From an uncultured Bdellovibrio sp. (GTDB lineage Bacteria > Bdellovibrionota > Bdellovibrionia > Bdellovibrionales > Bdellovibrionaceae): a stretch of DNA of 64,000 nucleotides. This document shows positions 5,271 to 26,540 of the stretch, one piece after another. Position 1 is the stretch's first letter, and each line of letters starts with the position of its first letter. The notes beneath the pieces were generated by a model. It worked only from the letters and a program-made list of their open reading frames with translations, was not told the DNA's origin and did no database searches. The stretch lies in the NCBI GenBank assembly GCA_963932905.1, contig CAWVRN010000002.1, positions 96,001 to 160,000 on the forward strand, written 5' to 3'. The position numbers were made by a program, and so were the translations under genes.

Positions 5271-5286
5271 TGGCATTCAATGTGCA
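5271..5286 (+). promoter_or_regulatory. Putative sigma54 promoter of the flagellar operon
   Basis: TGGCATTCAATGTGCA fits TGGCA...GG-N10-GC, 40 bp upstream of ATG 5326. Confidence 0.55.
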
Positions 5287-5325
5287 TTTTAAGATTTTAA
5301 CTAGAAAACTAAGCGGGCAGTGTAA

Positions 5326-8121: not shown

Positions 8122-8125
8122 GGAG

Positions 8126-9393: not shown

Positions 9394-9395
9394 AC

Positions 9396-9839: not shown

Positions 9840-9971
9840 ACAGGGTTTTAGCTGTCTCAGGTTAAGACATACGTCTTAGACTAGTTTGAAAATAGGTACT
9901 TTGTGCCTAGCTAAAGTTACGGTAAAATAATTTTAAGGGCTTAAAGAATTTGAGCCTGGGAGAAAGACACC

Positions 9972-10355
9972 ATGGACGGATTTAACATTAAGAATTCGAA
10001 TCAGTTTCTGAATAATTCGAATTACCTTGATCAGCGGTCAATGAAAGTGACCCCTCCAGCTTCCGAAAAAATTTCTGGAATGAACGGCTCTGGAACAATC
10101 GGCTCCATCGGCCCAACTCAATCCAGTGAACCGGGGAAATCGTTTGCAGCCACACTGAACGAAGCCATCAAAGGTGTAAATGAGTTACAAAAATCAAGTG
10201 ACAAAGCCGCGCAAGATTTAGCGACAGGTAGAACAGATAACGTAGCAGAAGTAATGTTATCGGCAGAGAAAGCGGATGTCGCATTGAGAGTTATGGTGCA
10301 AGTAAGAAATAAAATTATCGATGCCTATAACGAAATCATGAAAATGCAAGTTTAG
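9972..10355 (+). CDS. fliE: Flagellar hook-basal body protein FliE
   Basis: C-terminal VRNKIIDAYNEIMKMQV. Confidence 0.95.
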   Translation: MDGFNIKNSNQFLNNSNYLDQRSMKVTPPASEKISGMNGSGTIGSIGPTQSSEPGKSFAATLNEAIKGVNELQKSSDKAAQDLATGRTDNVAEVMLSAEKADVALRVMVQVRNKIIDAYNEIMKMQV

Positions 10356-10387
10356 TTTAACGGTTGAAGGATTAGAGGGGACGTAGA

Positions 10388-12043
10388 GTGAGTAAATTAT
10401 TCGCTGGTTTGATTATACAATTTAGAGAGTTCTTCAAGAACTTGGGGCCAACCAAACGATTCTCTGTAGTGATCGTTGGTTTGATCGCTGCCTTGTCGTT
10501 TGTGTCCATCATTTTCATGTTGTCTGGAAATGAATACGTTCCGTTGCTAACGAACGTGCCGTCGGATCAAATGCCGATGATCGTTCAAAAATTAACTCAG
10601 AAAAATATCCCGTTTCAATTGAAAGAGGAAGGCAAGACAATTTCCATTCCGAAAGAATTATTGCATTCGACGCAAATGACTTTGATGTCAGAAATTGGTT
10701 CTACAAAAATGGGATCAATTGGTCTTGAGATTTTTGATAAACAGGAATTTGGAGTGAATTCGTACGCACAAAAAATTAATTATCAACGTGCCTTACAAGG
10801 CGAGTTGATCCGTGCGATCAATACATTAACTGCCGTAAAACAATCTAAAGTAATTCTGGCTTTGCCAAATAAGAAAACATTTTTAGAAGAAGGTGGTAAA
10901 CCGTCCGCTTCTGTTGTCGTTGAATTACATCAAGGAAAAGAATTGTCAGCAGAGCAAATTCGTGGTGTTCGTTATTTGGTAGCTAATGCCATCGAGGGTA
11001 TGGATCCAGAAAGCGTAGCGGTACTTGATGAACGCGGTAAAATGTTAACTCAGCATACCGATGGGACAACAGCGGGCTCATCAGAAATTTTAGATCTTAA
11101 AAATAAAATTGAGCGTGAATATGAAGGCCGCATCGAGAGTATCTTGTCTAAAGTAGTAGGACAGACGCGTGTGGTTGCGAAAGTAGAAGCGCAATTAAAC
11201 AATAAAGTTGTTTCTAGTGTTGAAGAAATTGTGGATCCAGAGAAAACGGCGATTCGTGCCCAGCAAAGTGAAGAAGAATCACTGGATGGTGCCCGTACAA
11301 ACCCAGCCGGAGTACCCGGCTCGCGTAGTAACTTACCAGGTGCTGAAGACGCCGGTCAGGTTGGTTTCAAGCAAGATGTTAAAAAAGAAATTAAGACTAC
11401 TAATTTTGAAGTGCCTAAAACGGTTCGAAATGTAAAAGAGGCCGCAGGCAATTTAGAGAAAATTTCAGTAGCAGTCGTAGTCGATGGTCTTTTCCAAACA
11501 GTCAAGAATGATCAAGGTGTGGAAGAAACTAAGTGGATGCCCCGTTCAGCCGAAGAATTGAAAAAGTATGAAGATATCGTTAAAAACGCAGTCGGATTCA
11601 ATGCGGCCCGCGGTGACTCTGTTAAAATTGAAAACATTCAATTTCAACCAGAGGATTTCTCAGAAGCTGAAAAATTATTAACTAATTTAGAACGTCGTAA
11701 ACTTCTACAAGCTCTATTCAAATGGGCATTATTAGCTTTCTCGTTAGCGTTACTATTCATTCTGATCGTAAGACCATTCATGCAGTGGATTACAGATTCA
11801 TTCCAAGATTCAGTAGATGAAATGCTACCGCGCACGATTGAGGAACTGGAAGAATTGCAATCGGTGGATAATACTTTACCGGGTATGTCAGGCGCCTTGC
11901 CGGTCTTACAAGAGTCAATTGATCCAGACAAAGCGGAATCTGAGTTACTTAAAGATCGCATCATGACGTTAATGCAGAAAGATCAAGAAAAAGCAGCCAA
12001 TGCATTTGGTATGTGGCTAGTTAGAAAGGATGAGAATCGGTGA
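10388..12043 (+). CDS. fliF: Flagellar MS-ring protein FliF
   Basis: GLEIFDK, NYQRALQGEL, PSASVVV, GVPGSRSN motifs; two TM segments. Confidence 0.95.
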   Translation: MSKLFAGLIIQFREFFKNLGPTKRFSVVIVGLIAALSFVSIIFMLSGNEYVPLLTNVPSDQMPMIVQKLTQKNIPFQLKEEGKTISIPKELLHSTQMTLMSEIGSTKMGSIGLEIFDKQEFGVNSYAQKINYQRALQGELIRAINTLTAVKQSKVILALPNKKTFLEEGGKPSASVVVELHQGKELSAEQIRGVRYLVANAIEGMDPESVAVLDERGKMLTQHTDGTTAGSSEILDLKNKIEREYEGRIESILSKVVGQTRVVAKVEAQLNNKVVSSVEEIVDPEKTAIRAQQSEEESLDGARTNPAGVPGSRSNLPGAEDAGQVGFKQDVKKEIKTTNFEVPKTVRNVKEAAGNLEKISVAVVVDGLFQTVKNDQGVEETKWMPRSAEELKKYEDIVKNAVGFNAARGDSVKIENIQFQPEDFSEAEKLLTNLERRKLLQALFKWALLAFSLALLFILIVRPFMQWITDSFQDSVDEMLPRTIEELEELQSVDNTLPGMSGALPVLQESIDPDKAESELLKDRIMTLMQKDQEKAANAFGMWLVRKDENR

Positions 12044-13074
12044 AAGTAGTTAAAGCGGAAAATATAGACTTTGATATTCTTAAGGGGTTTGATAAAGCCG
12101 CCATTCTGCTTAATTATTTAGGCAAGGACGCGGTTAAAATTCTTCTTGGCAGAATGGAAGACGCGGATATCCGTAAATTAATTAACGTGATGAACAAGTT
12201 TCGCGTAGTTCCTGTTCACGTGACTAAAAAAGTTTTGGAAGAATTTTATGAAATGATCAGCGAGACAGATGACTATATCTTCTCGGATCAAATTTCTAGT
12301 AAAGATAGCATTGTCGACGCGGTCGGTGAAGATCGTGCCCGCGGTATTCTGGGTGGTTTAAATATCGGTTCAGCGAACGCGCGTTCATTAGAATCATTAG
12401 AGATGGTCGATGCGAAGTCCTTGGCGAACTTCCTGGTGAATGAGCATCCGCAAACAGTTGCCGTTATCTTGGCGCACTTAGAGCCAGAGAAAAAAGGTGA
12501 GGTTCTAAAGCGTTTGCCTGATACTTTGCAAGCTGAAGTGGTTCTGCGTATGGCCAACTTAGAGCACGTAGATCCTGAGCTAATTGTTGAAATTGATAAA
12601 GTTTTGAAAAACCAATTGGCTAATACTGCCAGTGTCGAGCAGTCAACATTGGGCGGTGTTCAGCCAGTGGCCGAAATGCTCAACGTTATGGACAAAAACA
12701 CAGAAACCTCGATCATGTCCCGTTTGGAAGAAAAAGACCCATTGCTGGCCGAAGAGATCCGCAAGTTGATGTTCGTATTTGATGACATTATTAAAATCGA
12801 TGATCGCGGTATTCAGTCACTTCTTAAGGAAGTACCGAATGATAAACTTCTTCTGGCTCTTAAAACGGCGAACGAAGATATCAAAGCAAAAGTATTCAAA
12901 AATATTTCTGCCCGTGCTGCCGACATGTTACGTGAAGATTTAAATAACATGGGACCATCACGTCTATCCGATGTTGAAGGTGCTCAACAAGAAATCGTCA
13001 ACGTGGCTCGTCGCCTAGAGGCTGAAGGTAAGATCCTAATTGCTAGAGGTGGTTCAGAAGATGCCATGGTATAG
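12040..13074 (+). CDS. fliG: Flagellar motor switch protein FliG
   Basis: KAAILL, EHPQTVAVIL and MFVFDDI motifs. Confidence 0.96.
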   Translation: MKVVKAENIDFDILKGFDKAAILLNYLGKDAVKILLGRMEDADIRKLINVMNKFRVVPVHVTKKVLEEFYEMISETDDYIFSDQISSKDSIVDAVGEDRARGILGGLNIGSANARSLESLEMVDAKSLANFLVNEHPQTVAVILAHLEPEKKGEVLKRLPDTLQAEVVLRMANLEHVDPELIVEIDKVLKNQLANTASVEQSTLGGVQPVAEMLNVMDKNTETSIMSRLEEKDPLLAEEIRKLMFVFDDIIKIDDRGIQSLLKEVPNDKLLLALKTANEDIKAKVFKNISARAADMLREDLNNMGPSRLSDVEGAQQEIVNVARRLEAEGKILIARGGSEDAMV

Positions 13075-13843
13075 TCGTTCAATTTTAAAAGAAGAAAGAG
13101 CACGCGAGGTCGTAGTTGAATACACTCCGACCCAATTCAATTTAGGCACGCCAGTTCAGGCTCTTGATTACCTAGATGAAATCAAAAAGGGATCTGACTT
13201 TGTTATGAATCCCGTGATCCGCGAACAGACGGGTATTGAAGAAATTCAGCGCGAAGACTTAGATTCTAAGGCTGAAGAGTTAGCTATTCATAAACTAAAA
13301 GACATTCAGGCATCTGCTTATAAAGAAGGTTACGATTTAGGTTTAGATGAAGGCACTAAGCGTGCGTATCAGGAAAAAACTAAAGAAATCACAGCCAAGC
13401 TGCAGGAATTAGATCGTTTGTTAGTAAACGTAAATACGTTAAAAACGGATTTAGAAGTACAAAATGAAAGCCATCTGATTCAACTTGTCTACCACATGGC
13501 TTCGCGTATTTCTATGCGACAGATTGAAATGGATAACAAAATCGTGATCGATATTATGAAGCAAGCGATGAGTTTGGCTCAGGATGAAGAAAACATTACG
13601 GTTCACGTGTCGGATCGTCAGCTTGAATTCATTGAAGATATTAAAAAGAATTCGCATTCTAGAGAGTTTGAATTTTTGAAAAAAGTTAAACTAGAAGGAA
13701 ATCCCGATATCCAACCAGGCGGTTGTATTGTTGAAACAAATTATGGTGAAGTGGATTCACGGATTGAACAACGATTACAAAAACTTTGGGAACATGTCGG
13801 TGAAGCACTTCCTAAAGTTAAAACCCCTATAGAATACGAGTAA
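13061..13843 (+). CDS. fliH: Flagellar assembly protein FliH (start uncertain: 13040 or 13061)
   Basis: AYKEGYDLGLDEG repeats, GGCIVETNYGEVD; lies between fliG and fliI. Confidence 0.9.
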   Translation: MPWYSRSILKEERAREVVVEYTPTQFNLGTPVQALDYLDEIKKGSDFVMNPVIREQTGIEEIQREDLDSKAEELAIHKLKDIQASAYKEGYDLGLDEGTKRAYQEKTKEITAKLQELDRLLVNVNTLKTDLEVQNESHLIQLVYHMASRISMRQIEMDNKIVIDIMKQAMSLAQDEENITVHVSDRQLEFIEDIKKNSHSREFEFLKKVKLEGNPDIQPGGCIVETNYGEVDSRIEQRLQKLWEHVGEALPKVKTPIEYE

Positions 13844-13846
13844 ACT

Positions 13847-15178
13847 ATGGACGTGGGATCAAAGATCAACATTGAGAAATACAACCAGATTATTTCTAAC
13901 ATCCATTTATCAAAAGATAGTGGCAAGGTTAAGGAAGTTGTTGGTCTATTGATTAAAGGTTATCTACCAGGTGCCGCAGTCGGTGCCGTGGTAGAAGTAT
14001 TCCCTAATGGGCTAGAAAAATCGTTTTTAGCCGAAATCGTTGGTTTTAAAGATAAAGATGTATTGATGATGCCACTGAATGAAATGCGTGGTGTAGGTTT
14101 AGGATCAAAAATTATTCTAGCAAAACAGACAGCGGCCGTGCGAGTCGGTGAAGAGCTGATTGGACGAGTCGTAAATGGTTTAGGTCAGCCAATTGACGGC
14201 AAACCTGATATCGAAGACTTCGAAGAACGTCCTTTATACGCTGAAGTGGTTAACCCACTCGAGCGTGAACCAATTCGTTCACCCATTGATTTGGGTGTGC
14301 GGGCAATTAATTCTTGTTTAACCGTAGGCCTGGGGCAACGTGTGGCTATTATGGCTGGTTCAGGGGTGGGTAAATCAGTCTTGCTGGGCATGATGGCCAG
14401 AAACACGAATGCGGACGTTAACGTCATAGCGCTTATTGGTGAGCGTGGTCGTGAGGTTCGTGAATTTATTGAAAACGATTTAGGCCCCGAAGGCATGAAA
14501 AAATCTGTTGTCGTATGCGTGACAAGTGATCAAAGTCCTTTGCTGCGTATGCGCGGCGCTTATGTTGCCACCGCTATCGCGGAGTATTTCTGTAATAAGG
14601 GGCAAAATGTACTTTTGATGATGGATTCTGTAACTCGTTTTGCTATGGCCCAGCGTGAAATTGGATTAAGCGCGGGTGAGCCACCATCCTCGCGTGGTTA
14701 TACTCCTTCAGTATTTGCACAACTGCCAAAGTTATTAGAACGCGCCGGGAATTTTGAAAATAAAGGTAGCATCACTGGGTTGTATACCACGTTAGTAGAA
14801 GGCGACGATATGAATGATCCCATCGGAGATTCCGTTCGTTCGATTGTGGATGGCCATATTGTGCTGTCACGCGCATTGGCGCAGCGTGGGCATTTCCCAT
14901 CAATTGATGTATTACAATCAGCAAGTCGGGTGATGAAAGCAGTATCAAAACCTGAACACCAAAAGTTAGCCCAGAAGCTTCGTGAAAATTTAGCGATTTA
15001 TAAAGAAGCCGAAGATCTAATTAATATCGGTGCCTATAAACCAGGTGCAAATCCCAAAATCGACAAAGCCGTTAAATTAATTGATGGAATAAATGATTTC
15101 TTAAGGCAGAGGGTAGAGGATGGAACAAGCTTTTCTCAGACGCAGAAAATGCTTCAACAACTATTTGTCGGGAACTAA
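13847..15178 (+). CDS. fliI: Flagellar export ATPase FliI
   Basis: AGSGVGKS, GERGREVREF, MDSVTRFAMAQRE motifs. Confidence 0.96.
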   Translation: MDVGSKINIEKYNQIISNIHLSKDSGKVKEVVGLLIKGYLPGAAVGAVVEVFPNGLEKSFLAEIVGFKDKDVLMMPLNEMRGVGLGSKIILAKQTAAVRVGEELIGRVVNGLGQPIDGKPDIEDFEERPLYAEVVNPLEREPIRSPIDLGVRAINSCLTVGLGQRVAIMAGSGVGKSVLLGMMARNTNADVNVIALIGERGREVREFIENDLGPEGMKKSVVVCVTSDQSPLLRMRGAYVATAIAEYFCNKGQNVLLMMDSVTRFAMAQREIGLSAGEPPSSRGYTPSVFAQLPKLLERAGNFENKGSITGLYTTLVEGDDMNDPIGDSVRSIVDGHIVLSRALAQRGHFPSIDVLQSASRVMKAVSKPEHQKLAQKLRENLAIYKEAEDLINIGAYKPGANPKIDKAVKLIDGINDFLRQRVEDGTSFSQTQKMLQQLFVGN

Positions 15179-15183
15179 GCCAT

Positions 15184-16290
15184 ATGAAAAAATATGCCGC
15201 TTTGGTCTGTTTAATTCTATTGCCTGTTTTGGGAAAGGCTCAAACTCTTCCGGGTAACGTTGCCTATACACCGGAGCAAATCGTAAACGAAAAAGCGAAT
15301 AAAGTTAATGAGCAGAATCAAATGGGTTCTGGCCCAAACGCCGACTATAGTATATTTAATAATTCTCAATCTTCGCATGGAGTGAATTTCTCGTCAGTTG
15401 GTAAAAGTCAGCAGGTGGGACTTGATTTGCATTCTGAAGCAGAAAACTTGCAGGGGCAGGTTATCACAGAACAAAAAGATGCCGGTATATCGGATCCGAA
15501 GGGGTGTAGCGATCGTGGGGCATTAAGCGAATATCACAACAACATATGCACTGCTTCGGATACGTTGCAGGTTATGGGTATCGAGGCCTTAGAATCGCAA
15601 AGTGTATTTCAAGAGTCGGCAACACAAGCATACCAAACAATGGAAGATACCTCTGCATTTCCTTTAGATGGATCAAATCTTGGAACATTCGCCGCGGATA
15701 CGCATGGCCTGCCTACAAATACGAATGTGCTTTACTCAAGTAATAAACCTTCGATCGAAAGCTTTAATACACTCTACAAATCGTTGGATTCAACGGCGCA
15801 GTACAAGGGATTAAAATACAACACAAAAAATGATTACTTCTATTTAGAAGGAAAAAAATATTCAACGTCCGTATTGTATTCTAAGGATGCAATGCTAAAA
15901 GCTGGAATCAACAAATCACTTACAAATTTCGCGTACGCGATGCTGAATAAAAAATCGATTTCGGCGCAAAATAAAATTACTGCAATTCTGAAGGGTAGAA
16001 AACTTTACGACGGAAAAAAATGGAGTATTATTGGTGTTTCTTCAGATCCCAGTGCTTCGCTGGTAGATGATTCTTCAACCCGGCCAGTGATGACTAGTCC
16101 TGAAAGACCTTCCCAGATTCGATCTGGAGTTGTTGATCTTTCGTCTAGTCTGGTCGAGGACAAGACGCTTTATAAAGACATAAATGGCGTATCGGTAGGA
16201 CTTTCCTCTGATGACATTTTCAAAATGATCAGCAGAAAGTACAGAGAAAAAGATAAATTAGGTTTTTTTCACAACTCTCCAAAAAAATAA
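15184..16290 (+). CDS. Secreted hypothetical protein inserted between fliI and fliJ
   Basis: 368 aa, signal peptide, C-terminal GVSVGLSSDDIFKMISRKY. Confidence 0.75.
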   Translation: MKKYAALVCLILLPVLGKAQTLPGNVAYTPEQIVNEKANKVNEQNQMGSGPNADYSIFNNSQSSHGVNFSSVGKSQQVGLDLHSEAENLQGQVITEQKDAGISDPKGCSDRGALSEYHNNICTASDTLQVMGIEALESQSVFQESATQAYQTMEDTSAFPLDGSNLGTFAADTHGLPTNTNVLYSSNKPSIESFNTLYKSLDSTAQYKGLKYNTKNDYFYLEGKKYSTSVLYSKDAMLKAGINKSLTNFAYAMLNKKSISAQNKITAILKGRKLYDGKKWSIIGVSSDPSASLVDDSSTRPVMTSPERPSQIRSGVVDLSSSLVEDKTLYKDINGVSVGLSSDDIFKMISRKYREKDKLGFFHNSPKK

Positions 16291-16306
16291 TATAAACTAA
16301 AAGTAT

Positions 16307-16768
16307 ATGAAATTTAACTTCCGCATGCAGAAGGTCCTTGAACACCGCAAGGTTCAAGAGGATCTTGCTAAAACTGACTTTCAATCTGCGCTGATGCGGT
16401 TGAATGAAGAAGTCGAAAAACTTCAATTCATGATTGATCAAAAAAAGAAAGCCCGTGTGAAAAGTTTTGAAATAGAAACGGGTACGCTTGTTCCAAATGC
16501 CTTGCAGAACGGGATTCTGGAAGAATCTTCTCGTTTTCAAAAACTTCAGGACGTACGCATTGAAAAACAAAAGGAAGTCATTGCCGCTTGGGAAAAAGAA
16601 GTCGAGTCCAAACGAGAAATTTTGAAATCGAAGGCGATAGATTATAAAATAATAGAGAAGTTCAAAGATAAAAAGAAACAGCAGTTTATCGATGAAAACA
16701 ACAAAAAAGAGCAAAAAGAAAATGATGAAATTTCGATTTTGCGATTTGCGAGCAGGAATAAAAAATGA
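16307..16768 (+). CDS. fliJ: Flagellar export protein FliJ
   Basis: MKFNFRMQKVLEHR N-terminus, coiled coil, EQKENDE C-terminus. Confidence 0.9.
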   Translation: MKFNFRMQKVLEHRKVQEDLAKTDFQSALMRLNEEVEKLQFMIDQKKKARVKSFEIETGTLVPNALQNGILEESSRFQKLQDVRIEKQKEVIAAWEKEVESKREILKSKAIDYKIIEKFKDKKKQQFIDENNKKEQKENDEISILRFASRNKK

Positions 16769-17643
16769 GAGTACATGAACGTTATCTAGATCAGATGCTC
16801 AAAAAATCCGGTGAAGGCGATTCGCTTAACTTCAACAGAAAGAAAGCGCAGTTTCCTTTGAAAGAGCAGCCAGCTCCGCAAATGAAAAGAAAATTCAAAC
16901 CGTCTGTGACTCGCAGAAAAAATAGTTTTTCACCTACGGCTATTGTTTTCACAATGTTGGGCATCGGTGTTGCCTATTTTGGTTACGAAAATATCGAATC
17001 TATTGAGAAATGGATGAATTCAGTCAATATCACGTTCACGACATCAGCAATGGCCGAAGGCAAAGTGTCAGAAAAGCCAGCCGTAGCCGATAAAGCCAAA
17101 TCGGAAAAGACTGCGACGGAGGCCAAAGGCGAAGCTGCGCCTGCCAATGAAACTAAGTCCGCTGATAATTCAGGAATTGATTTTGATTTCGTAAGAGACT
17201 TCAAAGATAGAAAGAAAGCCTTAGATCAAAAAGAAGAAGAATTAAAAGCTTGGGAAGCGGAAATTCAAACTCAGAAGTCAGAGCTAGATACTAAGATCGC
17301 TGAAATTCAAAAAATCAGAAAAGATATTTCAGCACAGCTTGAAGAGCGAGTAAAAGCCGATCAAGCGAAGATCGATACTTTGGTTCAGGTGTATAGCCAA
17401 ATGAAGCCTTCTCAAGCTGCGAAAGTATTCGAAGCCTTGGACGAAGATTTAGCGGTTGATATTTTAACGAAAATGAAAAAGAAAAGCGCGGCTGATATTC
17501 TTAACTTGCTGAAAGCAGATAAGGCGCAGGTTTTGTCTGAAAAATTTGCGGGTTACACAAGAAAACCAGCATCGGCTAAAGATACAAATACAAACAATCA
17601 AACTAAACCAGAGGGGGCGCCTGTTGAAACAGCCAAACCCTAA
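16765..17643 (+). CDS. MotE/FlbB-like flagellar protein (MgtE N-terminal-like domain)
   Basis: TM, coiled coil, YSQMKPSQAAKVFEAL...MKKKSAADIL. Confidence 0.8.
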   Translation: MRVHERYLDQMLKKSGEGDSLNFNRKKAQFPLKEQPAPQMKRKFKPSVTRRKNSFSPTAIVFTMLGIGVAYFGYENIESIEKWMNSVNITFTTSAMAEGKVSEKPAVADKAKSEKTATEAKGEAAPANETKSADNSGIDFDFVRDFKDRKKALDQKEEELKAWEAEIQTQKSELDTKIAEIQKIRKDISAQLEERVKADQAKIDTLVQVYSQMKPSQAAKVFEALDEDLAVDILTKMKKKSAADILNLLKADKAQVLSEKFAGYTRKPASAKDTNTNNQTKPEGAPVETAKP

Positions 17644-17657
17644 CGGAAGGAGGACTA

Positions 17658-19610
17658 TTGAACGTTCAACCGGTTTCGTTCATGCCGAAGCCAGACGCGA
17701 AAGCGCCGAGCAGCATGAATACACAAGAAAACCGTGTCGACGAAAAAGGATTCAGCAAAGAGCTTGAACGTAGAGTGGATGCCCCAGGGACCAAAAAGCC
17801 GGCGGATAAAAATTCCGATAGGCAGCTAAAGACTCCAGGGGAGAAATCAGAAAAGAAAGAAGTGGTTGCTAAAGACACTTCGGTAGAACAAAACACAGCC
17901 GATAAAAGAGTTGTGGAAAAGAAAGTAAAAAAAGATTCAGACGATAAATCTGAATCCGGTGACGGCAAACTGACAAAAAAGGCGGATACTAAAGAAGAAC
18001 GCCTTAAAAAATTCATGGACTCGTTAGAGAGTGAATTTCAAATACCTCCGACTCGAATAGTGGAGGCATTCAGTGAGCTCAGCCCCGAAGAACTTTCGCT
18101 ACCGGCTGATGAATCCATCGACCGTGTTGTTGGTAAGTTAAATCTAGATGAAGAATCAACTGCCAAGGTTAAAGACCTTTATGGCGATCTGGTTCAGGAT
18201 CTAGAAACTATCGACACCAAGCAGACTGAATCTAAATTCGGAATGGCACCAAGTGTGGCCGCGCTAGGGCTGACTCGCGAGCGTTTTGACAAAGTCAAAA
18301 ATCAGCGTGAAGCCTTGCAGAAATCTTTGGATCAAATGAACCAAAGTTTTTGGCAGCCACAAGTGAATCCACAAATCACGACGCCAATTCAAGGTGATCT
18401 AATTGCTAAAGCGCAATTGGCCTCGAAAGGGCGAAATGGTTTAGATTCTTATCGTGATATTTCTACAGAAAACACGTTGCCTAGTGTGATGGCGGGGCTG
18501 ACTCCAGGCGAATTAGCGATGGATCAGAATCGTGAGTTTATATATGATCCGCGCACAGGCGACATGTATAAAATAGATCCCAATGTGATGGCCTCTAATA
18601 ATGAAGGTGATCAGTCATTCAGCGCCAAAGACGCTGCGATGATGGGCGTCGCAGCCGCTCTCGGAATTTCAAAAATGAAATCAGATGCCGGTAATTTAGA
18701 TGGTACGTCCCCAATGGGTCCGGGTTATGGTATGGAAGCATCAAAAGCTGCAATGCCAATGAACCCTAAGCCAAATCAGCTAGCCAATCTTGAATCTCTA
18801 AGTAGTGCACCGACTGATGTTTCTTCTGCGATGCTAGCTAAATTAGCTAACTCGTCGAATTCATCGGGTAGTGGATCCTCTGACTTTTTCAGCAAAGGCG
18901 GCGGCGGTTCTGAATCTCATAACACTCAGGTTTCTGGAAAGAAAACTGACGGCGATGACATGAAGACCATGCTAGCGGCATCATTAGGTGTGGGAGCCGG
19001 TAATGATTTGAAAGAGTCATCGCTAAATTCTGCGCCAATCATGGTGCCAGGAACAAACGCTCAGGTGACTCAAGAAGCCACTGATCGCAATGTCCAGAAC
19101 GTTATGCAACAAGCTCAATACTTGGTGAAAGCGGGCGGCGGCGAGATGAAGGTAAGAATGACTCCTGAAGGCCTTGGCGAAATTCAACTCAGTGTTGAGT
19201 TAAAAGATGGAAAGGTTCAGTTGCATATGGCTGCTGAAAATAAAGAGACCAAGAAAATGTTAGAATCCAGTCTTTCAGATTTAAGAGAGAGTCTTTCTCA
19301 ACAAAAGATTTCTTTAGAGTCGGTCAAAATTGATACGGTTGCACGCACGAACACAGAAAATCATGCGAACAGTAATAACAGCAATCAATTTGGACAGAAT
19401 CAAAATCAGGAAAACCGCGATACGCGACAGTTCTGGAATCAGTTTCAAGATCAATTCGGTGGTGGACGTCCTGGACGTGAATCCCTAATGGATGGATTAA
19501 AAGTCAAAGGATATGCCGCGAAGAAATCAGAAACAATAGCTCCGGCAACGGAAACTAGTTCAGCTGGTCGTTCGAATGGAAAATCTTCAAGTCTAAATTT
19601 AGTCGCATAA
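17658..19610 (+). CDS. fliK: Flagellar hook-length control protein FliK
   Basis: Long low-complexity N-terminus, MTPEGLGEIQL T3S4 domain, TTG start with AGGAGG RBS. Confidence 0.88.
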   Translation: MNVQPVSFMPKPDAKAPSSMNTQENRVDEKGFSKELERRVDAPGTKKPADKNSDRQLKTPGEKSEKKEVVAKDTSVEQNTADKRVVEKKVKKDSDDKSESGDGKLTKKADTKEERLKKFMDSLESEFQIPPTRIVEAFSELSPEELSLPADESIDRVVGKLNLDEESTAKVKDLYGDLVQDLETIDTKQTESKFGMAPSVAALGLTRERFDKVKNQREALQKSLDQMNQSFWQPQVNPQITTPIQGDLIAKAQLASKGRNGLDSYRDISTENTLPSVMAGLTPGELAMDQNREFIYDPRTGDMYKIDPNVMASNNEGDQSFSAKDAAMMGVAAALGISKMKSDAGNLDGTSPMGPGYGMEASKAAMPMNPKPNQLANLESLSSAPTDVSSAMLAKLANSSNSSGSGSSDFFSKGGGGSESHNTQVSGKKTDGDDMKTMLAASLGVGAGNDLKESSLNSAPIMVPGTNAQVTQEATDRNVQNVMQQAQYLVKAGGGEMKVRMTPEGLGEIQLSVELKDGKVQLHMAAENKETKKMLESSLSDLRESLSQQKISLESVKIDTVARTNTENHANSNNSNQFGQNQNQENRDTRQFWNQFQDQFGGGRPGRESLMDGLKVKGYAAKKSETIAPATETSSAGRSNGKSSSLNLVA

Positions 19611-19615
19611 TTCGA

Positions 19616-19643
19616 AGGCAAGAGAAATAAAATTCTCTTGCCT
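19616..19643 (+). terminator. Hairpin between fliK and flgD (terminator or mRNA-stability element)
   Basis: AGGCAAGAGAA-N6-TTCTCTTGCCT, perfect 11-bp stem with no strong U tail. Confidence 0.45.
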
Positions 19644-19718
19644 CTACTTACGACTGAAAATGTATCGGTCTAGTCTCATTTTTAACTATTCAGGGATAGA
19701 ATAAAGAAAGGAGTACCT

Positions 19719-20888
19719 ATGACAGTAATGAATACGAAATTGGGTGTTAATCAATTTGGTGCCACTCAGACCAAAGCAACTTCTTCAAATGCTTCGCAGG
19801 CACAACTAACGGACGCTGATTTAAAAAAATTAGGCGGGGACAACGTTGGTGATGTTCTAAATAAAGTTGCGGATCCAAATTGGGTCGATCCTTCTAAGAA
19901 AATGCGTACTGTCGGTAATGATAAATTAGATAAAGATGCGTTCTTTAAACTAATGTTGGCGCAAATGAAGAATCAAGATCCGACGAATCCTTTAAAGTCA
20001 CACGAGATGGCCGCACAGTTAGCCAGCTTCTCGTCACTCGAGCAAATGCAAAATATGAATACAACATTAACTGATCTGAAGAATGGTCAGAAGCCAACTG
20101 AACAGTTTCAGGTGTTGAATTTATTGGGTAAAGGCGTTGCTGGGGATTCGTCTAAAATTCTTCGTAATCCTGGTGATAAGTCTCATGAATTTGTTTTCAA
20201 TTTACCAATGAAAGCGAAAGAAGCGGACATCCGCGTTCGTAATGCTGATGGTGAAGTTGTGAAAACATATAAATTAACAGGGTTGAAAGAAGGCGAGAAT
20301 CGTCTTCCTTGGAATGGCCAAGATGAAAAAGGAAACGCGGTACCTGCTGGTGAATATCAATTCTTCATCGAAGCGAAAAATGATCAAGGACAGAAGATGG
20401 CCATCAAAACAGAATTCGAAGGTCAGATTACCGGCGTGAACTATGCTCCGGAAGGACCAGTGTTGTTAATTGGAAATCAAGCGATCCGTCTACGTGATGT
20501 TAAGAAAATCGTTGATCCTCAGCTGATGAATGCTCCAAGTAAAGCTAACGAAATAAATCCAGAACTTCAAGCGATGCCAGCGGCTCCGCAACCAGGCGCA
20601 GTTCCGGGTGCTCCTCAGCTTCCTCCAGGAATGCCGGGGCTTCCCGCAATGCCAGGTTTATCTATGACTCCGCCAGTAGGCGCCGGTGGGGCTTCCACGG
20701 TACCACCGCAACCGCAAGCACCAGCGGACGGCAAAGGATCAACTCAAGCATCGGCGAATAGCAAAGCCGCTCAACCTAAAAAAGAAGTTCAGGGCGCACC
20801 GCCGGCACCCCAACGAAGCAAGCTTTTAGATCAAGTAGGCTTATCGAGTGAGATGATGGGTAAGATAGCTAAAGAAACTTCAATGTAG
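19719..20888 (+). CDS. flgD: Flagellar hook-cap protein FlgD with a Pro-rich C-terminal extension
   Basis: FFKLMLAQMKNQDPTNP, QLASFSSLEQM, WNGQDEKG FlgD-Ig motif. Confidence 0.93.
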   Translation: MTVMNTKLGVNQFGATQTKATSSNASQAQLTDADLKKLGGDNVGDVLNKVADPNWVDPSKKMRTVGNDKLDKDAFFKLMLAQMKNQDPTNPLKSHEMAAQLASFSSLEQMQNMNTTLTDLKNGQKPTEQFQVLNLLGKGVAGDSSKILRNPGDKSHEFVFNLPMKAKEADIRVRNADGEVVKTYKLTGLKEGENRLPWNGQDEKGNAVPAGEYQFFIEAKNDQGQKMAIKTEFEGQITGVNYAPEGPVLLIGNQAIRLRDVKKIVDPQLMNAPSKANEINPELQAMPAAPQPGAVPGAPQLPPGMPGLPAMPGLSMTPPVGAGGASTVPPQPQAPADGKGSTQASANSKAAQPKKEVQGAPPAPQRSKLLDQVGLSSEMMGKIAKETSM

Positions 20889-20896
20889 GAATTTAA

Positions 20897-21385
20897 ATGA
20901 ACCACTGGAAACCATGTAGCAGTTGTAAGAAAGAAATCGGATTTAATACGAAATATTACGAGTGCAGTGTTTCCACATGTACGGGTTCGCGAACTGGATA
21001 TGTTTTTTGTTCTGTTCCATGCTGGGAACGTCACCTTCCTGGCGCTAAACATCGCGATGCCGCTGCCATAGAAAAAAAATCTCCTACCCAGGCCGAATTT
21101 GAAAAGTCACAAGAGACCGTGGCCCCAGTTGGTGGTCAACGGCGAATTATTGCTTCATCAGCACCATTGTCCTCTACCGCCGCCACCAAGAAAGACGAAA
21201 ATGAAATCTTAGTCGTTGTTTCTAAAGTAAAAGCTTATATCAAATCGCAAGCCGACATGAATGTTTCTGACGAGATAATGGACATTCTTTCTCATCGAAT
21301 CCGTTATTTCTGCGACCAGGCGATTAAACACGCTCAAGCTGACGGAAGAAAAACGGTTCAAGACAAAGATATGAAAGTTAGCTGA
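20897..21385 (+). CDS. Zinc-finger (ZZ-like) plus bacterial histone-fold protein
   Basis: N-terminal CSSC...CSVSTC...CSVPCWERH...H; C-terminal EILVVVSKVKAYIK...MNVS...AQADGRKTVQDKD resembles Bdellovibrio histone Bd0055, including the R-K-T...D signature. Confidence 0.88.
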   Translation: MNHWKPCSSCKKEIGFNTKYYECSVSTCTGSRTGYVFCSVPCWERHLPGAKHRDAAAIEKKSPTQAEFEKSQETVAPVGGQRRIIASSAPLSSTAATKKDENEILVVVSKVKAYIKSQADMNVSDEIMDILSHRIRYFCDQAIKHAQADGRKTVQDKDMKVS

Positions 21386-21483
21386 AATCTGTTATTTCTC
21401 ATAAAATAATTATTTTTTTTAGTGTTCAATAGTCTGCCTTTATACTATTCCTATCATTTACTTTTTATCGCGTTGGAGTTGCT

Positions 21484-23433
21484 TTGGAATTACTGAGTGC
21501 CATTTTATCTGAGAAAAGTGATTTAGGGCCACAAGGGCGTGCCAAATGGTTATCGCGTTTGCTGTTCTGGTTCCAGCGTTCGCGTTCTTCTGATGAAAAG
21601 GAAATCAATTGGGAAAAGATCTACACCACTCGTTTAAAGTTTATCATTGTTCAGCTCAGAGCCAATCCTGAATGGCGGGATAATGTCGAGTCTAATTTAC
21701 GGCATGTCTTGATTGATCTGCTGACGTCACATCAATTGTCTAGCGCAGGGTTGCCGGACGAAACTAGTTTTTTTCAAGATTTTTTTCATCGTGTTCAAGA
21801 CAAGATTCTTCCGGATGGACTTTTCCAAAATGACCTAGCGTCCATACTTAAGCATACTTTTGATTCCGAGAATGAAATAGTGATTATTGATGCCATCGAC
21901 GAGGAAACTATTAGTGAGTTCATTGTCGAAGTATTTCGAGATAAGTCAGACCACAAGTTAATGAGGTCAGCCTTGATTCAGTCGTTAATACGAACCAGTA
22001 TCCAACTAGCCAATAGCTCTTTGTTGTTGTCGAATAAGTTGTTTAAGCGCGGATTTTCAAATTGGGAAAATGCAGAACGTATTTCAAAAAGTATTTTGTT
22101 TGATTTTGCCAACGCAGGTGAATCGATAAATGTTGTTCAATTGTGTGAATCTATTAATGAACTAGAAAAAGTCACCAACATTATCCAGAGCAATTTGGGT
22201 AAGATGGGTGTTGAGATTGAGGTCGTCTATACACTTCAAATACAACTTAAACGTATAAAGCGTTTAAAATTATTAACTAACTTTTTAGACGAAAAACTTT
22301 CAACGGCATTGGCTAGTCGACTATTTTTCTCTGAATTGGTGAAGGATGTCTACGAAAGCCGCGGCATCAAAGGATTTCTGGTTACCAATCTAGAGTTACT
22401 AGCAAAACGTGTAGTGCAGGGTAACTCAGCCGTGGGTGAACACTATATCGCAAAAACCTGGGATGATGTCAGGGCTATGTTTCTGTCGGCTTTGGGTGGA
22501 GGTATGGTTACCTCAATGACCGTATTCATCAAACATGTACTTTCGCTTATAGGCCTAACCGGATTTTTAAAAGGCGCCGCGGATGCCGTGAACTATTCTT
22601 GCAGTTTCTTGGCGATTCAACTAGCGGGTTTCACGTTAGCAACTAAACAGCCTTCGACAACGGCCGCGTTCTTGGCCAAAACGTTAGAGACCTCGACTCG
22701 CGAAAGTGTCCTTTCTATATTTTATATTTTGCGTGCTCAAATTGTTGCCGTTATCGGTAATGTTTCTGCTGTGGTTCCAATTTGTTTTTTTCTTTCATTG
22801 GGATTCCAAAAAATGGGACATCCCATGATGAGTTTAGAAGAGGCTCGTTCGGTGTTTGCTTCTACCCACTTGCTGGGGCCAACAGTTGTATTTGCCTGCT
22901 TCACCGGGGTGTTGCTGTTCCTATCCAGTCTAGTTGCAGGCTGGTTTGAAAATTTTTGTATCGTCACTAGCTTGCCAACACGTATTCGTCACAACAGTAA
23001 ATTATCCGCTTTAATAGGAAAAAAAGCGGCGTTGAATTTTTCTGAATTTATCAAAGAAAATAGTAACGCATTGGCGGCTAATATTTCTCTAGGTTTATTA
23101 CTTGGTTTAGTTCCTCAATTGCTAAAGTTTCTAAGCATACCGCTAGAAGCCCGTCACGTAACTCTGGCCTCGGGCGCTTTTGCATCGTCATTACCCATTA
23201 TGCTAGATCAAACCGAATATTCTGTTTTTGAATTTGCAAATGCAATAAGCGGGCTCGTGTTGATCGGTTTTTGTAATTTGATTGTCAGCTTCTCACTGTC
23301 CTTAACACTGGCTCTGGCAGCGTCTGAAGGGTCACGTGGTTCAGTGATGAAATTATTAAGATGGACAGGAAAGACGGTGATTCGTCGGCCGTATATGCTG
23401 ATTTATCCGGAAAGAAGAAAGAAAAAGAGCTAG
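21484..23433 (+). CDS. Gcr/'SpecificRecomb' (PF10136-like) polytopic membrane protein
   Basis: GEHYIA, FTLATKQP, AGWFEN, RHVTLASG motifs; multiple C-terminal TMs; TTG start after GGAG. Confidence 0.8.
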   Translation: MELLSAILSEKSDLGPQGRAKWLSRLLFWFQRSRSSDEKEINWEKIYTTRLKFIIVQLRANPEWRDNVESNLRHVLIDLLTSHQLSSAGLPDETSFFQDFFHRVQDKILPDGLFQNDLASILKHTFDSENEIVIIDAIDEETISEFIVEVFRDKSDHKLMRSALIQSLIRTSIQLANSSLLLSNKLFKRGFSNWENAERISKSILFDFANAGESINVVQLCESINELEKVTNIIQSNLGKMGVEIEVVYTLQIQLKRIKRLKLLTNFLDEKLSTALASRLFFSELVKDVYESRGIKGFLVTNLELLAKRVVQGNSAVGEHYIAKTWDDVRAMFLSALGGGMVTSMTVFIKHVLSLIGLTGFLKGAADAVNYSCSFLAIQLAGFTLATKQPSTTAAFLAKTLETSTRESVLSIFYILRAQIVAVIGNVSAVVPICFFLSLGFQKMGHPMMSLEEARSVFASTHLLGPTVVFACFTGVLLFLSSLVAGWFENFCIVTSLPTRIRHNSKLSALIGKKAALNFSEFIKENSNALAANISLGLLLGLVPQLLKFLSIPLEARHVTLASGAFASSLPIMLDQTEYSVFEFANAISGLVLIGFCNLIVSFSLSLTLALAASEGSRGSVMKLLRWTGKTVIRRPYMLIYPERRKKKS

Positions 23434-23460: not shown

Positions 23461-24300
23461 TTATTTTTGAACGATGTTTCTTAAACCTGAAGAACCATTC
23501 GCGCCATAAACTGCTTTAGCAATTCCCGCGCATTGAGCTGCGACCGCCGCGATAGATTGGGCTCCGATTTTACCAAACACTATTTGTCCCACAGTGAAGT
23601 CTGGATCGTCATCTAAATGGCAATCAGCTACGACTGGGTATTGATTTACATCTAATTTTGGATTTTTAATTGCTGCAGAGCCGTTGTTTTTGTAGGCCGC
23701 CGTAGCGATTAGTTTACATTGGTTCATCGCTTCTAAGAAGTCAGACGTCGCGATTTGACCAACAGCAATTTGTCCTGCCGTGAAATCAGGGTCATCGTCA
23801 ATTTCGCACGTCGCCTCTACGAAGTAAGTTGGTTTTTGTATTACCGTGGCATTTGAAATTCCAAACGAGTACTGAGTCGAACCACTTGATTTGGCGATTG
23901 CCTCACAATCCGCTAAAATGGCACGAATTGAACTGCCCTTCAGCGTACCACCACTCATTTGCCCTGGTGTAAAATCAGGGTCGTCATCGATTTCACATTT
24001 TGCTGACATAATCACACGGTTATTTACAGGAGGTGGTGGGTAGTTAGGCTCATTGGGTGGGTAGGTTTCATTTAAAGAGTCGTTTAGGTTTCTTTCTGCC
24101 GCTGTCAGGCGTCTTTTAATTTGCTGCAATTTGCGAGTGATGTCTTGGACACTTCCGCCGCGGCCTAAATCAGAAATGGTACGAGTTAGCTCTTGTCGAG
24201 CCGCTGAAACTTGTTCTGTACCTTTTTGAACAAGAAAGTCGTCAGCCGCCATCGCGCTGAAAGCGACTAGGTAGCTGGATAAAATAAGTGATTTTTTCAT
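23461..24300 (-). CDS. Secreted protein with three C-x-x-DDDPDFT-x-GQ repeats
   Basis: Likely start MKKSLIL at 24300 (GGGGG RBS), signal peptide, coiled coil, Pro linker, three ~62-aa repeats. Confidence 0.8.
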   Translation of the reverse strand: MKKSLILSSYLVAFSAMAADDFLVQKGTEQVSAARQELTRTISDLGRGGSVQDITRKLQQIKRRLTAAERNLNDSLNETYPPNEPNYPPPPVNNRVIMSAKCEIDDDPDFTPGQMSGGTLKGSSIRAILADCEAIAKSSGSTQYSFGISNATVIQKPTYFVEATCEIDDDPDFTAGQIAVGQIATSDFLEAMNQCKLIATAAYKNNGSAAIKNPKLDVNQYPVVADCHLDDDPDFTVGQIVFGKIGAQSIAAVAAQCAGIAKAVYGANGSSGLRNIVQK

Positions 24301-24358
24301 TGGTTCCCCCATAATTTGGGTTCGAAATGACTCCGAACCGCATTCGGTTTGGAGAGTT

Positions 24359-24374
24359 TGCAAGTGGCAGACCA
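24359..24374 (-). promoter_or_regulatory. Putative sigma54 promoter
   Basis: Minus strand TGGTCTGCCACTTGCA fits GG-N10-GC with TTGC, about 60 bp upstream of ATG 24300. Confidence 0.5.
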
Positions 24375-24492
24375 ATCAAATTTCGTCGGCAAATTCAAAT
24401 TGCCCCCGCACGATGCGCCGTACTTGAACATGAATGAAATTATGAAATCTGGTCAATGAGTTGTTGATATGAAATCGACGAAAAAATACTTA

Positions 24493-24530: not shown

Positions 24531-24647
24531 ACCTAAAGCCAGTGAAATTTTGCCACCAGTTGGCCCTATTTTAAGTTTTAGACTAGATTTTAAAGATAAT
24601 TCTTGCTGGACTTGAAAAGCAGTCTCCAAATCTGTGATGATGAATGT

Positions 24648-25079
24648 ATGGACGTAAAGAAAATGAATACTTTAGACACCGCAATAAAGGGGACAGGCTT
24701 CCCTGCCGGTGGTATTTCTCAAGGTACTCAGGTTCCGTCTACAGGACCTTCGTTCAAAGATACGTTGAATGGATTGTCCACTGTTGACTTGAAGAAAGTG
24801 GCTAATGATGCCGGTCTAGGCGAGAAGGGAATTAAGTTCTCGAATCACGCGATCGAGCGCATGCAGTCTAGGGGAATTTCATTTAAGGCGGACGATATGA
24901 CCAAATTAAATGAAGCCGTAGATCGCGCCGCAAGTAAAGGCAGCAAAGATTCACTGATCTTGATGAATGATTCAGCTTTGATCGTGAGTGTGAAAAACAG
25001 AACCGTTGTCACAGTGATGGATAAAACCGCACTGAAAGAAAATGTGTTCACGAATATCGACAGCACGATTGTGATGTAG
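24648..25079 (+). CDS. TIGR02530-family flagellar operon protein (start uncertain)
   Basis: IKFSNHAIERMQSRGI, KGSKDSLIL, NRTVVT, NVFTNIDS motifs; precedes flgE. Confidence 0.88.
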   Translation: MDVKKMNTLDTAIKGTGFPAGGISQGTQVPSTGPSFKDTLNGLSTVDLKKVANDAGLGEKGIKFSNHAIERMQSRGISFKADDMTKLNEAVDRAASKGSKDSLILMNDSALIVSVKNRTVVTVMDKTALKENVFTNIDSTIVM

Positions 25080-25256
25080 GTCTTCGGACAAAGTAAGTAC
25101 TAAACCTTAAATTCTCGAATAGAATTTAGGGATGTAAAAAACAGGGCTGGTCCTCTTTGAGGGGGCCCTCCAAAACTCCCAGAGCCGTTTGCTCAGGGAA
25201 ATTAATTTGGTCCAAGCAGGATGCTTGGGTCATACGAACATGACATGGAGGTCATA

Positions 25257-26540
25257 ATGGGTATTCTATCGTCTCTCTACACAGGCGTATCCGGTTTAAC
25301 AGCACAAGGTGAAGCGTTAGGGGTAATTGGTGATAACATCGCCAACGCCAACACTATCGGTTTCAAAGCCTCTCGTGCAGAATTTCAAGATATCATTTCT
25401 AAGAACTTAAAAGGTATCTTAGGTGGTAACCAGATCGGTCGCGGGGTTAAAATCGGCGCGGTAAATCCAATCTTGGTACAAGGTAACGTGGATGCGACTG
25501 AAAAAGTAACTGACTTAGCAATTTCTGGCGACGGTTACTATAAAGTAAAAGGTAGCGATGGCGAATCATTCACTCGTGATGGTTCATTCCACTTTGATAG
25601 AGAAGGTTACCTAGTTACAAACGATAATCAAAAAGTTCAAGGTTTCATGACGGATGAAAAAGGTAACATCCTAAATAAAATGGCTGATATCAAATTCCCT
25701 CGTGCATTGATCCCTGCAAAAGGATCGACAGAACTGAAGCTAGATCTGAATTTAGATTCACGTGTTGAGCCTACTAAAAAATTCAACATTGACGATCCTT
25801 ACTCAACATCACACTACTCAACGGGTGTAGAGATGTACGACTCACAAGGTAACAAACATTTAGTTCAGTTCTTCTTTAATAAAGTGGCTGATCGTAAGTG
25901 GGAATATAAAGGTCTTTGTGATGGTAAAGAAGTTACCGGTGGTGAAGAAGGAAAAATGGCTCAAGTTGTTGCGGGTACATTAGACTTCACAGTAGATGGA
26001 AAATTAGAAAAACAGGAAGTAACAGATTCATCATTCAACTTCATGGGTGGAGCTTTACAAAATCAAAAAATTAAAATGAATTTCGGTGACGATATCGCAA
26101 GTGGCGGTAAAGGTTTAGATGGAACTAAACAATACGGTAAAGGTTCAGATCTAATCTCATGGCACCAAGACGGTGCGGGCGCAGGTACAATCACTGGTTT
26201 ATCGTTCAATGACGAAGGTGTGTTGACGGCGGTTTATTCGAATGGTCAAGCGGCTGACTTAGCTCAGATTGCTTTAGCAAAATTCGAAAATCCGGAAGCG
26301 TTATTCAAAGTCGGTAACAATCGTTTGAAAGAATCTAGAGATTCTGGTGGTCCATCAATGGGTGCGCCAGGCGCAGCGGGTCGCGGTAAAATTTACGCGA
26401 AATCGTTAGAGCGCTCAACGGTCGACTTAGCGACAGAGTTCGTAAACATGATTCAAAATCAACGTGGTTTCCAAGCCAATGCGAAGACAATCACGACAAC
26501 AGATGAATTACTAAACGAAATCATCCAGTTGAAAAGATAA
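25257..26540 (+). CDS. flgE: Flagellar hook protein FlgE
   Basis: GGAGG RBS before MGILSSLYTGVSGL; NIANANTIGFK, DLAISGDG, FTRDGSF, LERSTVDL, QRGFQANAK. Confidence 0.96.
   Translation: MGILSSLYTGVSGLTAQGEALGVIGDNIANANTIGFKASRAEFQDIISKNLKGILGGNQIGRGVKIGAVNPILVQGNVDATEKVTDLAISGDGYYKVKGSDGESFTRDGSFHFDREGYLVTNDNQKVQGFMTDEKGNILNKMADIKFPRALIPAKGSTELKLDLNLDSRVEPTKKFNIDDPYSTSHYSTGVEMYDSQGNKHLVQFFFNKVADRKWEYKGLCDGKEVTGGEEGKMAQVVAGTLDFTVDGKLEKQEVTDSSFNFMGGALQNQKIKMNFGDDIASGGKGLDGTKQYGKGSDLISWHQDGAGAGTITGLSFNDEGVLTAVYSNGQAADLAQIALAKFENPEALFKVGNNRLKESRDSGGPSMGAPGAAGRGKIYAKSLERSTVDLATEFVNMIQNQRGFQANAKTITTTDELLNEIIQLKR

Follow-up and report, generated by a model that had tools for sequence, protein, structure and literature searches.

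ZZ histones are a described but functionally uncharacterised class of proteins, with one lowly expressed member reported from Bdellovibrio bacteriovorus (Schwab 2024, PMC11390915), and Bd3044 is known as the second, longer histone-fold protein of that species (PMC10627809, PMC12701072). Genes for alpha3 histones are reported to follow a single-gene-operon pattern, and a second histone to occur in only about half of the ZZ-bearing proteomes (PMC11390915). We describe a ZZ histone gene at 20897..21385 (+ strand) of a 64,000-nucleotide stretch of DNA deposited as an uncultured Bdellovibrio sp. (contig CAWVRN010000002.1 of GenBank assembly GCA_963932905.1, positions 96,001 to 160,000), referred to as the window. 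Throughout the genus to which the window belongs, this gene sits tightly behind flgD, the gene of the hook cap. The protein class is known, but the genomic context is new and is an exception to the published rule of stand-alone alpha3 histone genes (PMC11390915). A first-pass annotation, made from the letters of the window alone, had pointed to this arrangement and held that no operon link between a histone and flagellar genes was known to have been described. Literature searches likewise brought up none, and neither PMC11390915 nor PMC12701072 contains the string "flagell".

Position of the ZZ histone gene behind flgD

The open reading frame (ORF; P0001) begins with an ATG and encodes 162 amino acids. 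The preceding flgD gene (19719..20888, +; 389 amino acids, Pfam FlgD and FlgD_ig, also NCBIfam) ends in a TAG at 20886-20888, and the ATG of the ZZ gene follows at 20897, leaving a gap of 8 nucleotides. Within this junction (20886..20896, +) the Shine-Dalgarno sequence AGGA at 20887-20890 overlaps the stop codon and is followed by a spacer, so that the reading of the junction in the first-pass annotation was borne out by the coordinates. At the genus junctions examined the ZZ start lay between 8 and about 50 nucleotides past the flgD stop, with a Shine-Dalgarno-like sequence in each (9/9 loci). The conserved FlgD C-terminus VGLSxEMMxKIAKET, which is common to Bdellovibrio, is intact, and the insertion of the ZZ gene was thus clean. 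FlgD is longer in the window (389 amino acids) than in Bdellovibrio and at the loci L009 and L089 of the genus (334-335 amino acids). The extra length is an expanded Pro/Ala/Gly-rich segment preceding the conserved C-terminus, and the local GC content at 20400-20999 is 0.50-0.53 as against about 0.42 nearby.

Synteny across the family was determined by a whole-genome search of 182 family genomes, in which a ZZ match (E≤1e-15) was present in 108 and a FlgD match in 172. Adjacency was scored, among the FlgD matches listed, in 83 genomes, and a further 25 ZZ-bearing genomes, with no FlgD match or none among those listed, were left out of the count. In every genome of the window's genus (10/10, G000 included) flgD was followed directly by the ZZ gene on the same strand, and each of these genomes had exactly one ZZ match. 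The adjacency is therefore not the product of misassembly or chance rearrangement in a single assembly. Outside the genus it was seen in none of the 73 family genomes with both genes placed: the two genes were on different contigs in 59, at least 151 kb apart in 13, and 5 kb apart on opposite strands in one (G109). A general link between the histone and the hook is not supported by this comparison, and the arrangement is instead a lineage-specific relocation.

A scan of contigs for relatives found 491, of which the best 80 loci were analysed. Up to 8 kb of flanking DNA was included, less at the many loci where the contig ended sooner, and flagellar genes were sought by tblastn with eleven window proteins as queries. 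Among these best 80 of 491 loci, flagellar genes were present in seven (L003-L009, all with at least 65% identity), with flgD immediately upstream in each, and no flagellar gene was found in the flanks of the remaining 73. Contigs from sequencing runs also cover the junction, one from run X1 spanning 19719-23120 in one piece and one from X2 bridging 20767-21685; X1 is possibly the window's own source sample, and these contigs add little beyond the synteny of the ten genomes.

In G109, a member of another genus, the ZZ gene (locus L093, G109:C246; 2846-3340, +) lies about 3 kb beyond flgE and is convergent with a flgE-TIGR02530-flgD-fliK block at 6277-10910 (-). One such near-miss in 73 genomes is about what chance would produce.

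The site occupied by the ZZ gene is empty in two Bdellovibrio genomes, those of B. bacteriovorus Bd5 and Bdellovibrio sp. HCB2-146. The order there is fliI-fliJ-flbB-like-fliK-flgD-TIGR02530-flgE with no histone gene between, the TIGR02530 gene of Bd5 either abutting or overlapping the stop codon of flgD. The ZZ gene of Bd5 is located 364 kb from flgD, among clpB, a gene for an MGS-domain protein, a PGA_cap gene and unidentified ORFs. Two deeper-branching members of the window's genus, L009 and L089 (G178), show the clean order flgD-ZZ-TIGR02530-flgE, which is most simply taken as ancestral for the genus, the PF10136 gene and the genes following it being a later insert in a subclade. In a 68-row maximum-likelihood tree the nine flgD-adjacent proteins formed one bipartition with 100/100 support; the tree omits 14 loci, none of them flgD-adjacent, of which five had no clustering ZZ ORF of at least 80 amino acids and nine failed the trimming pattern. 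The single ZZ copy in each genus genome, the empty site in Bdellovibrio and the single supported clade point to one relocation of a single-copy ZZ gene behind flgD in the ancestor of the genus, without duplication. The relocation shows that the hook operon of Bdellovibrio can be opened and re-wired at its flgD/TIGR02530 junction. A Protein Atlas search returned only unnamed Bdellovibrionota clusters. Recent horizontal transfer was considered and dropped, as composition gave no sign of it: with a GC content of 0.44-0.46 the ZZ gene resembles its surroundings.

The surrounding genes qualify the further claim of the first-pass annotation that the ZZ gene is embedded in the hook operon. The window reads fliI, orf368, fliJ, an MgtE_N/FlbB-like gene, fliK, flgD, ZZ, PF10136, orf304 (on the - strand), TIGR02530 and flgE; farther upstream, on the same strand, stand a TPR gene, a sigma-54-activator-like gene, flgB, flgC, fliE, fliF, fliG and fliH, and intergenic gaps within 5326-21385 range from -35 to +132 nucleotides. 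Upstream of flgD, fliI occupies 13847-15178 (+) and fliK, for hook-length control, 17658..19610 (+; Pfam Flg_hook, 5.6e-19). Downstream of the ZZ gene, an AT-rich spacer free of terminator-like structure (21386..21483, +) leads to a PF10136 "SpecificRecomb" gene (21484..23433, +; 649 amino acids, Pfam 1e-129). This later insert is confined to the window's subclade, being present in L003, L004, L005, L007 and L008; L009, L089 and both Bdellovibrio genomes lack it. The genes past it differ among subclade members, which marks a variable spot. In the window the spot holds a variable insert, an ORF of 304 amino acids without a family match (23461..24375, -), whose homologue was found only in L003. 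The TIGR02530 flagellar biosynthesis gene follows (24603..25079, +; NCBIfam TIGR02530, 2.2e-39), its true start probably being an ATG near 24649, and then the hook gene flgE (25221..26540, +; Pfam FlgE_D2, Flg_bbr_C and Flg_bb_rod). The tight coupling of the ZZ gene to flgD stands, but in the window PF10136 and orf304 separate it from TIGR02530 and flgE. Between fliI and fliJ, a 368-amino-acid ORF without a Pfam or NCBIfam match (15184-16290) has homologues in L004, L005 and partly L006 but none in L089 or in either Bdellovibrio genome; it appears to be a further lineage-specific insertion into this flagellar cluster.

Domains and conservation of the protein

The ORF encodes an ordinary member of the ZZ histone class (Bd3044 type), a class that is already known, since the N-terminal finger, the C-terminal bacterial-dimer-like alpha3 fold and the RxTxxxxD motif were all found in it. 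The first-pass annotation had named this class as recognised yet uncharacterised, in agreement with Schwab 2024. Among 494 candidates, 466 were homologues at E≤1e-3.

The ZZ-like zinc finger spans residues 4-63 (20906..21085, +). The Cys6/His2 cluster proposed for this region was confirmed: the eight putative ligands, C7, C10, C38 and C42 together with C23, C28, H46 and H52, are present and were invariant (8/8) in an alignment of 35 sequences, and the domain is predicted to bind zinc. The division of the eight ligands into a C4 and a C2H2 site is taken over from the pattern published for D0LYE7. Folded alone by AlphaFold2 (AF2) from 37 sequences, the N-terminal 66 residues gave a predicted local distance difference test score (pLDDT) of 83.8. 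The top Foldseek matches of this domain-only model were nearly all ZZ domains (p62, KCMF1, BIG, HERC2), with target-normalised template-modelling (TM) scores of 0.54-0.65 and E of 0.03-0.2, which upheld the assignment to the ZZ histones. Residues 1-68 matched no Pfam ZZ profile even with the threshold relaxed to E≤10, and phmmer retrieved no ZZ chain from the PDB, the N-terminal domain having no PDB sequence match of any kind. The likeness of the modelled domain to ZZ is one of fold only.

Stand-alone ZZ-domain proteins of about 70-76 amino acids occur in other genera of the family, at L092 3847-4059 (G151) and L091 4174-4398 (G088), and further short ZZ matches were seen in G083, G086, G087, G117, G107, G161 and G097. 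The L092 and L091 proteins carry no histone fold, and no histone remnant lies downstream of them; the ZZ zinc-finger module can apparently exist alone.

The two domains are joined by a disordered, fast-evolving linker (residues 64-101; 21086..21199, +). In keeping with the linker proposed in the first-pass annotation, the AF2 model had a pLDDT below 50 for residues 75-105. One motif, (Q/K)RR(I/L)(I/V) at 21137-21151 (residues 81-85), which includes the QRRI of the window protein, is conserved within this otherwise variable segment, R82 being invariant and I84 nearly so in the 35 sequences.

The C-terminal part (residues 102-160; 21200..21376, +) is an alpha3, or bacterial-dimer-like, histone fold with the RxTxxxxD residues R151, T153 and D158, which lie in the sequence GRKTVQDKD near the C-terminus; R151, K152, T153 and D158 were invariant in the 35-sequence alignment. 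Residues 103-160 matched HBb (PDB 8cmp/8fvx) by phmmer with an E of 3.5e-11, archaeal HTkC and Leptospira HLp being weaker matches. Structure searches with the fold returned the same three proteins, HBb, HTkC and HLp (Foldseek, VIA), and the AF2 model matched HBb with a target-normalised TM score of 0.69-0.71 at 47% identity, so the histone fold read in the first-pass annotation was reproduced by both sequence and model. The ten DNA contacts of HBb listed in PMC11317129 were transferred to the ZZ histone through the phmmer alignment. Eight of the ten were identical (S109, K110, K112, K116, N122, S124, K152 and T153), one was a conservative change (R57 to K157) and one had changed (T8 to V108), and the RD clamp of the RxTxxxxD motif was intact. 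Two profile scores count against the histone assignment: Pfam PF00808 CBFD_NFYB_HMF reached 21.2 bits, 0.2 bits short of its gathering cutoff of 21.4, and NCBIfam NF043032 archaea_histone reached 23.6 bits with a cutoff of 50. Judged from the sequence match to HBb, histone homology is nevertheless clear despite these sub-cutoff scores.

Both folded domains of the ZZ histone are under strong purifying selection. Within the genus, where synonymous divergence (dS) is unsaturated, the ratio of nonsynonymous to synonymous substitution rates (dN/dS) lay at 0.01-0.05 in the zinc finger and at 0.01-0.02 in the histone fold. The linker gave 0.07-0.5, and the whole gene 0.04-0.06 in comparison with L003 and L004.

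Transcription, timing and alternative explanations

Scans of the last ~400 nucleotides of flgD for sigma-70, sigma-28 and sigma-54 consensus sequences gave no match. In its last 90 nucleotides the synonymous sites differ freely from one genus member to the next, and no block resembling a -35/-10 pair is conserved. Past the ZZ gene no + strand terminator was found in a scan, and the z-score of RNA folding was +1.27 relative to shuffled sequences. The 8-nucleotide gap, the gene's own Shine-Dalgarno sequence and the lack of a recognisable promoter in front of it argue that the ZZ gene is transcribed with flgD, most likely as the distal gene of a fliK-flgD transcription unit. A promoter of its own, placed in the 3′ end of flgD or in the fliK-flgD spacer and combined there with attenuation, would make the adjacency silent on timing. 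The scans were limited to sigma-70, sigma-28 and sigma-54 consensus forms, which leaves room for such a promoter, and a weak sigma-28-like match (TAAA-N15-GGTGATAA, 2 mismatches) is located inside flgD at 20153. However, this match lies about 740 nucleotides upstream and is at chance level, and the free variation of the flgD 3′ synonymous sites and the mere 8 nucleotides of the gap also speak against independent expression, which we consider improbable.

A flagellar (sigma-28) promoter common to the ZZ genes of the family was rejected. Upstream of 66 non-genus ZZ genes the distribution of best matches to the sigma-28 consensus was the same as in shuffled sequences, with no excess over them.

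Two further promoter-like elements frame the locus. A sigma-54-like promoter, TGGCAT-N5-GTGCA (5271..5287, +; a consensus match with 2 mismatches from a script scan), sits 55 nucleotides ahead of the TPR gene, the first of the co-directional cluster 5326-23433. The second gene of this cluster (8126-8992) encodes a sigma-54-activator-like protein of 288 amino acids with Sigma54_activ_2, AAA lid and HTH_8 domains, in which no receiver domain was detected. The other element (24606..24641, +) lies directly upstream of the TIGR02530 gene and consists of C(A/T)GGACTTGAAA, a spacing of 17-18 nucleotides, and TGnGAnAAT, which resembles an extended -10 sequence of the sigma-70 type. It gives a sigma-70-like match by consensus, TTGAAA/18/GATGAT with a TG. 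The 12-mer C(A/T)GGACTTGAAA was kept with 0-1 mismatch in 7/7 genus sources containing the region (including L009 at 3770 and L089 at 8890) and had no match at the corresponding position of the two Bdellovibrio loci. From these consensus matches and their spacing, our reading is that TIGR02530-flgE may have gained its own promoter when the flgD/TIGR02530 junction opened.

The explanation that we consider best, and likely to be right, is that the ZZ histone was relocated once into the flgD-distal position, where it is probably co-transcribed, and that this fixed a late-cycle timing that already existed. The single-copy ZZ gene would have moved behind the flgD stop in the genus ancestor, into the place held in Bdellovibrio by the coupled TIGR02530 gene. 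There it would form the distal end of the fliK-flgD transcription unit, part of a long sigma-54-type flagellar cluster, and the protein would be made during hook-basal-body assembly, as progeny cells mature. Relocation would have fixed the pre-existing timing and conferred no new flagellar function. The C-terminal alpha3 fold would dimerise, bind the DNA backbone non-specifically and bend DNA like its paralogue HBb; the conserved contact residues and the intact RD clamp make DNA binding and bending the most likely C-terminal activity. The N-terminal two-zinc cross-brace finger would most likely mediate a protein or peptide contact.

Support for the timing comes from a synchronised time course (bioRxiv 10.1101/2025.09.24.678257), in which bd0055, bd3044 and HU-beta are reported to peak specifically at T260, at division and exit, and the T260 cluster to be enriched in flagellar and chemotaxis genes. 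Since bd3044 and the flagellar genes are co-timed although 364 kb apart, the relocation is most economically explained as the capture of the gene by an operon that belonged to its temporal class already. The first-pass annotation had suggested a connection of the ZZ histone with differentiation into the attack phase, and by analogy the T260 peak of bd3044 lends this indirect support. No function is known for the ZZ histones, whose representative in B. bacteriovorus is reported to be weakly expressed and is hard to study. The coupling to flgD yields a testable hypothesis of timing, in which the ZZ histone acts in late maturation and flagellum assembly, and this fits the late-growth-phase peak of bd3044.

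Several observations weigh against relocation with co-transcription and a fixed late timing. An unconventional promoter inside flgD may lie beyond the reach of consensus scans. The promoter-like element before TIGR02530 implies that the ZZ gene ends a transcription unit and does not stand in the middle of an indivisible operon. Very low transcript and protein levels were reported for the ZZ histone of B. bacteriovorus (PMC11390915), and this low abundance argues against a bulk chromatin role. A gap of 8 nucleotides is a tiny target for rearrangement, so that retention of the adjacency would be expected even without selection. Other non-flagellar inserts occur in the same operon, namely orf368 between fliI and fliJ, and PF10136 with orf304 past the ZZ gene, and they suggest a permissive site.

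Such a site is central to the alternative in which the ZZ gene is a neutral hitch-hiker that landed at a permissive boundary behind flgD, its function being the same as elsewhere and its context without adaptive meaning. ZZ genes have varied contexts, the commonest neighbour family occurring in 19/81 sources and the neighbours including subtilases, kinases, peptidases and a D-Ala-D-Ala ligase. Unrelated genes have gathered behind the ZZ gene and at the fliI/fliJ junction too, the adjacency is confined to one genus, and the comparison of non-genus ZZ genes with shuffled sequences showed no sigma-28 enrichment. Against hitch-hiking, the adjacency has been kept in all ten species-level genomes, although FlgD is 66-67% identical in the deepest pairs and synonymous sites are saturated, and although DNA on both flanks was remodelled meanwhile. 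A Shine-Dalgarno-like sequence was kept at each junction, the ZZ gene itself was kept in 10/10 genus genomes as against 98/172 in the rest of the family (these genomes being related and not independent), and the late-cycle peak reported for bd3044 matches flagellar timing. Neutral hitch-hiking is quite possible in our judgement, if somewhat short of an even chance.

A direct or dedicated flagellar role for the ZZ histone is not supported, given the lack of flagellar synteny outside the genus, the lack of sigma-28 enrichment and the unchanged functional residues. Synteny with flagellar genes across lineages, by which a flagellar gene might be recognised, was confined to one genus, and adjacency to flgD does not establish a general functional link between histones and the flagellum. 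We assign a very low probability to the proposal that the ZZ histone was recruited as a flagellar factor, whether as an IHF-like bender at sigma-54 flagellar promoters, as a checkpoint regulator, or through binding of the N-termini of export substrates by the ZZ domain. The tight coupling to flgD would fit this proposal, as would a cluster that opens with a sigma-54-like promoter and encodes a sigma-54-activator-like protein, the bend of about 84 degrees that HBb is reported to impose on DNA (PMC11317129), and the nearest structural matches of the finger, which are the N-degron-binding ZZ domains of p62, KCMF1, BIG and PRT1. In the ZZ tree, moreover, no inner branch is longer than the stem of the flgD-adjacent clade (0.79 changes per column). 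Identities as such are, however, unexceptional (69-71% inside the genus versus 58-66% for the best outside hits), and the long stem may reflect an effect of linker alignment or a real burst of change. Flagellar genes are not associated with the ZZ gene outside the genus, and no change in the DNA-contact or zinc-ligand residues marks a new function. In ZZ histones, whose finger the first-pass annotation took for a possible "reader" domain, the residues of the eukaryotic peptide pocket are reported not to be conserved (PMC11390915).

A broader proposal is that the ZZ histone is a stage-specific chromatin factor under the flagellar hierarchy, which compacts the progeny nucleoid or shapes sigma-54 flagellar promoters. 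We think this unlikely. If true, it would mean a hard-wired link between flagellum building and chromosome remodelling, by way of a DNA-bending histone with a peptide-binding ZZ module. A single relocation that fixed an existing late-cycle timing remains the explanation that we prefer.

Comparison with known histones and ZZ domains

Like the ZZ histones and Bd3044, the window protein has a two-zinc finger at its N-terminus that a linker joins to a bacterial-dimer-like fold with RxTxxxxD at its C-terminus, and it is 51% identical to the ZZ protein of B. bacteriovorus Bd5. As in the published D0LYE7 pattern, the ligands of the second zinc site are spaced by 5, 18 and 6 residues, whereas the third ligand pair is CxxxC here and CxC in D0LYE7. 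The gene differs from the Bd3044-type precedent in being coupled to flgD, in contrast to the single-gene-operon pattern reported for alpha3 histones.

With HBb/Bd0055 (PDB 8cmp, 8fvx, 9ezz) the protein has in common the histone fold, at 46-47% identity, and the RD clamp. HBb, which is reported to be abundant and probably essential, has neither a ZZ domain nor a linker, unlike the window protein; the window genome keeps a separate short histone on another contig (L002). The modelled N-terminal domain resembles the eukaryotic ZZ domains of p62/SQSTM1, KCMF1, HERC2, ZZZ3, p300 and BIG/PRT1 in its cross-brace two-zinc fold and departs from them in having no detectable sequence similarity and, as reported for the class, no conservation of the pocket residues.

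In the organisation of its gene, the ZZ histone of the window may be set beside the RdgC and IHF histones, which also have a histone gene in a conserved operon with seemingly unrelated partners (Schwab 2024). Those operons are reported to be kept wherever the histone type occurs, whereas the ZZ-flgD arrangement is limited to one genus and its partners are flagellar.

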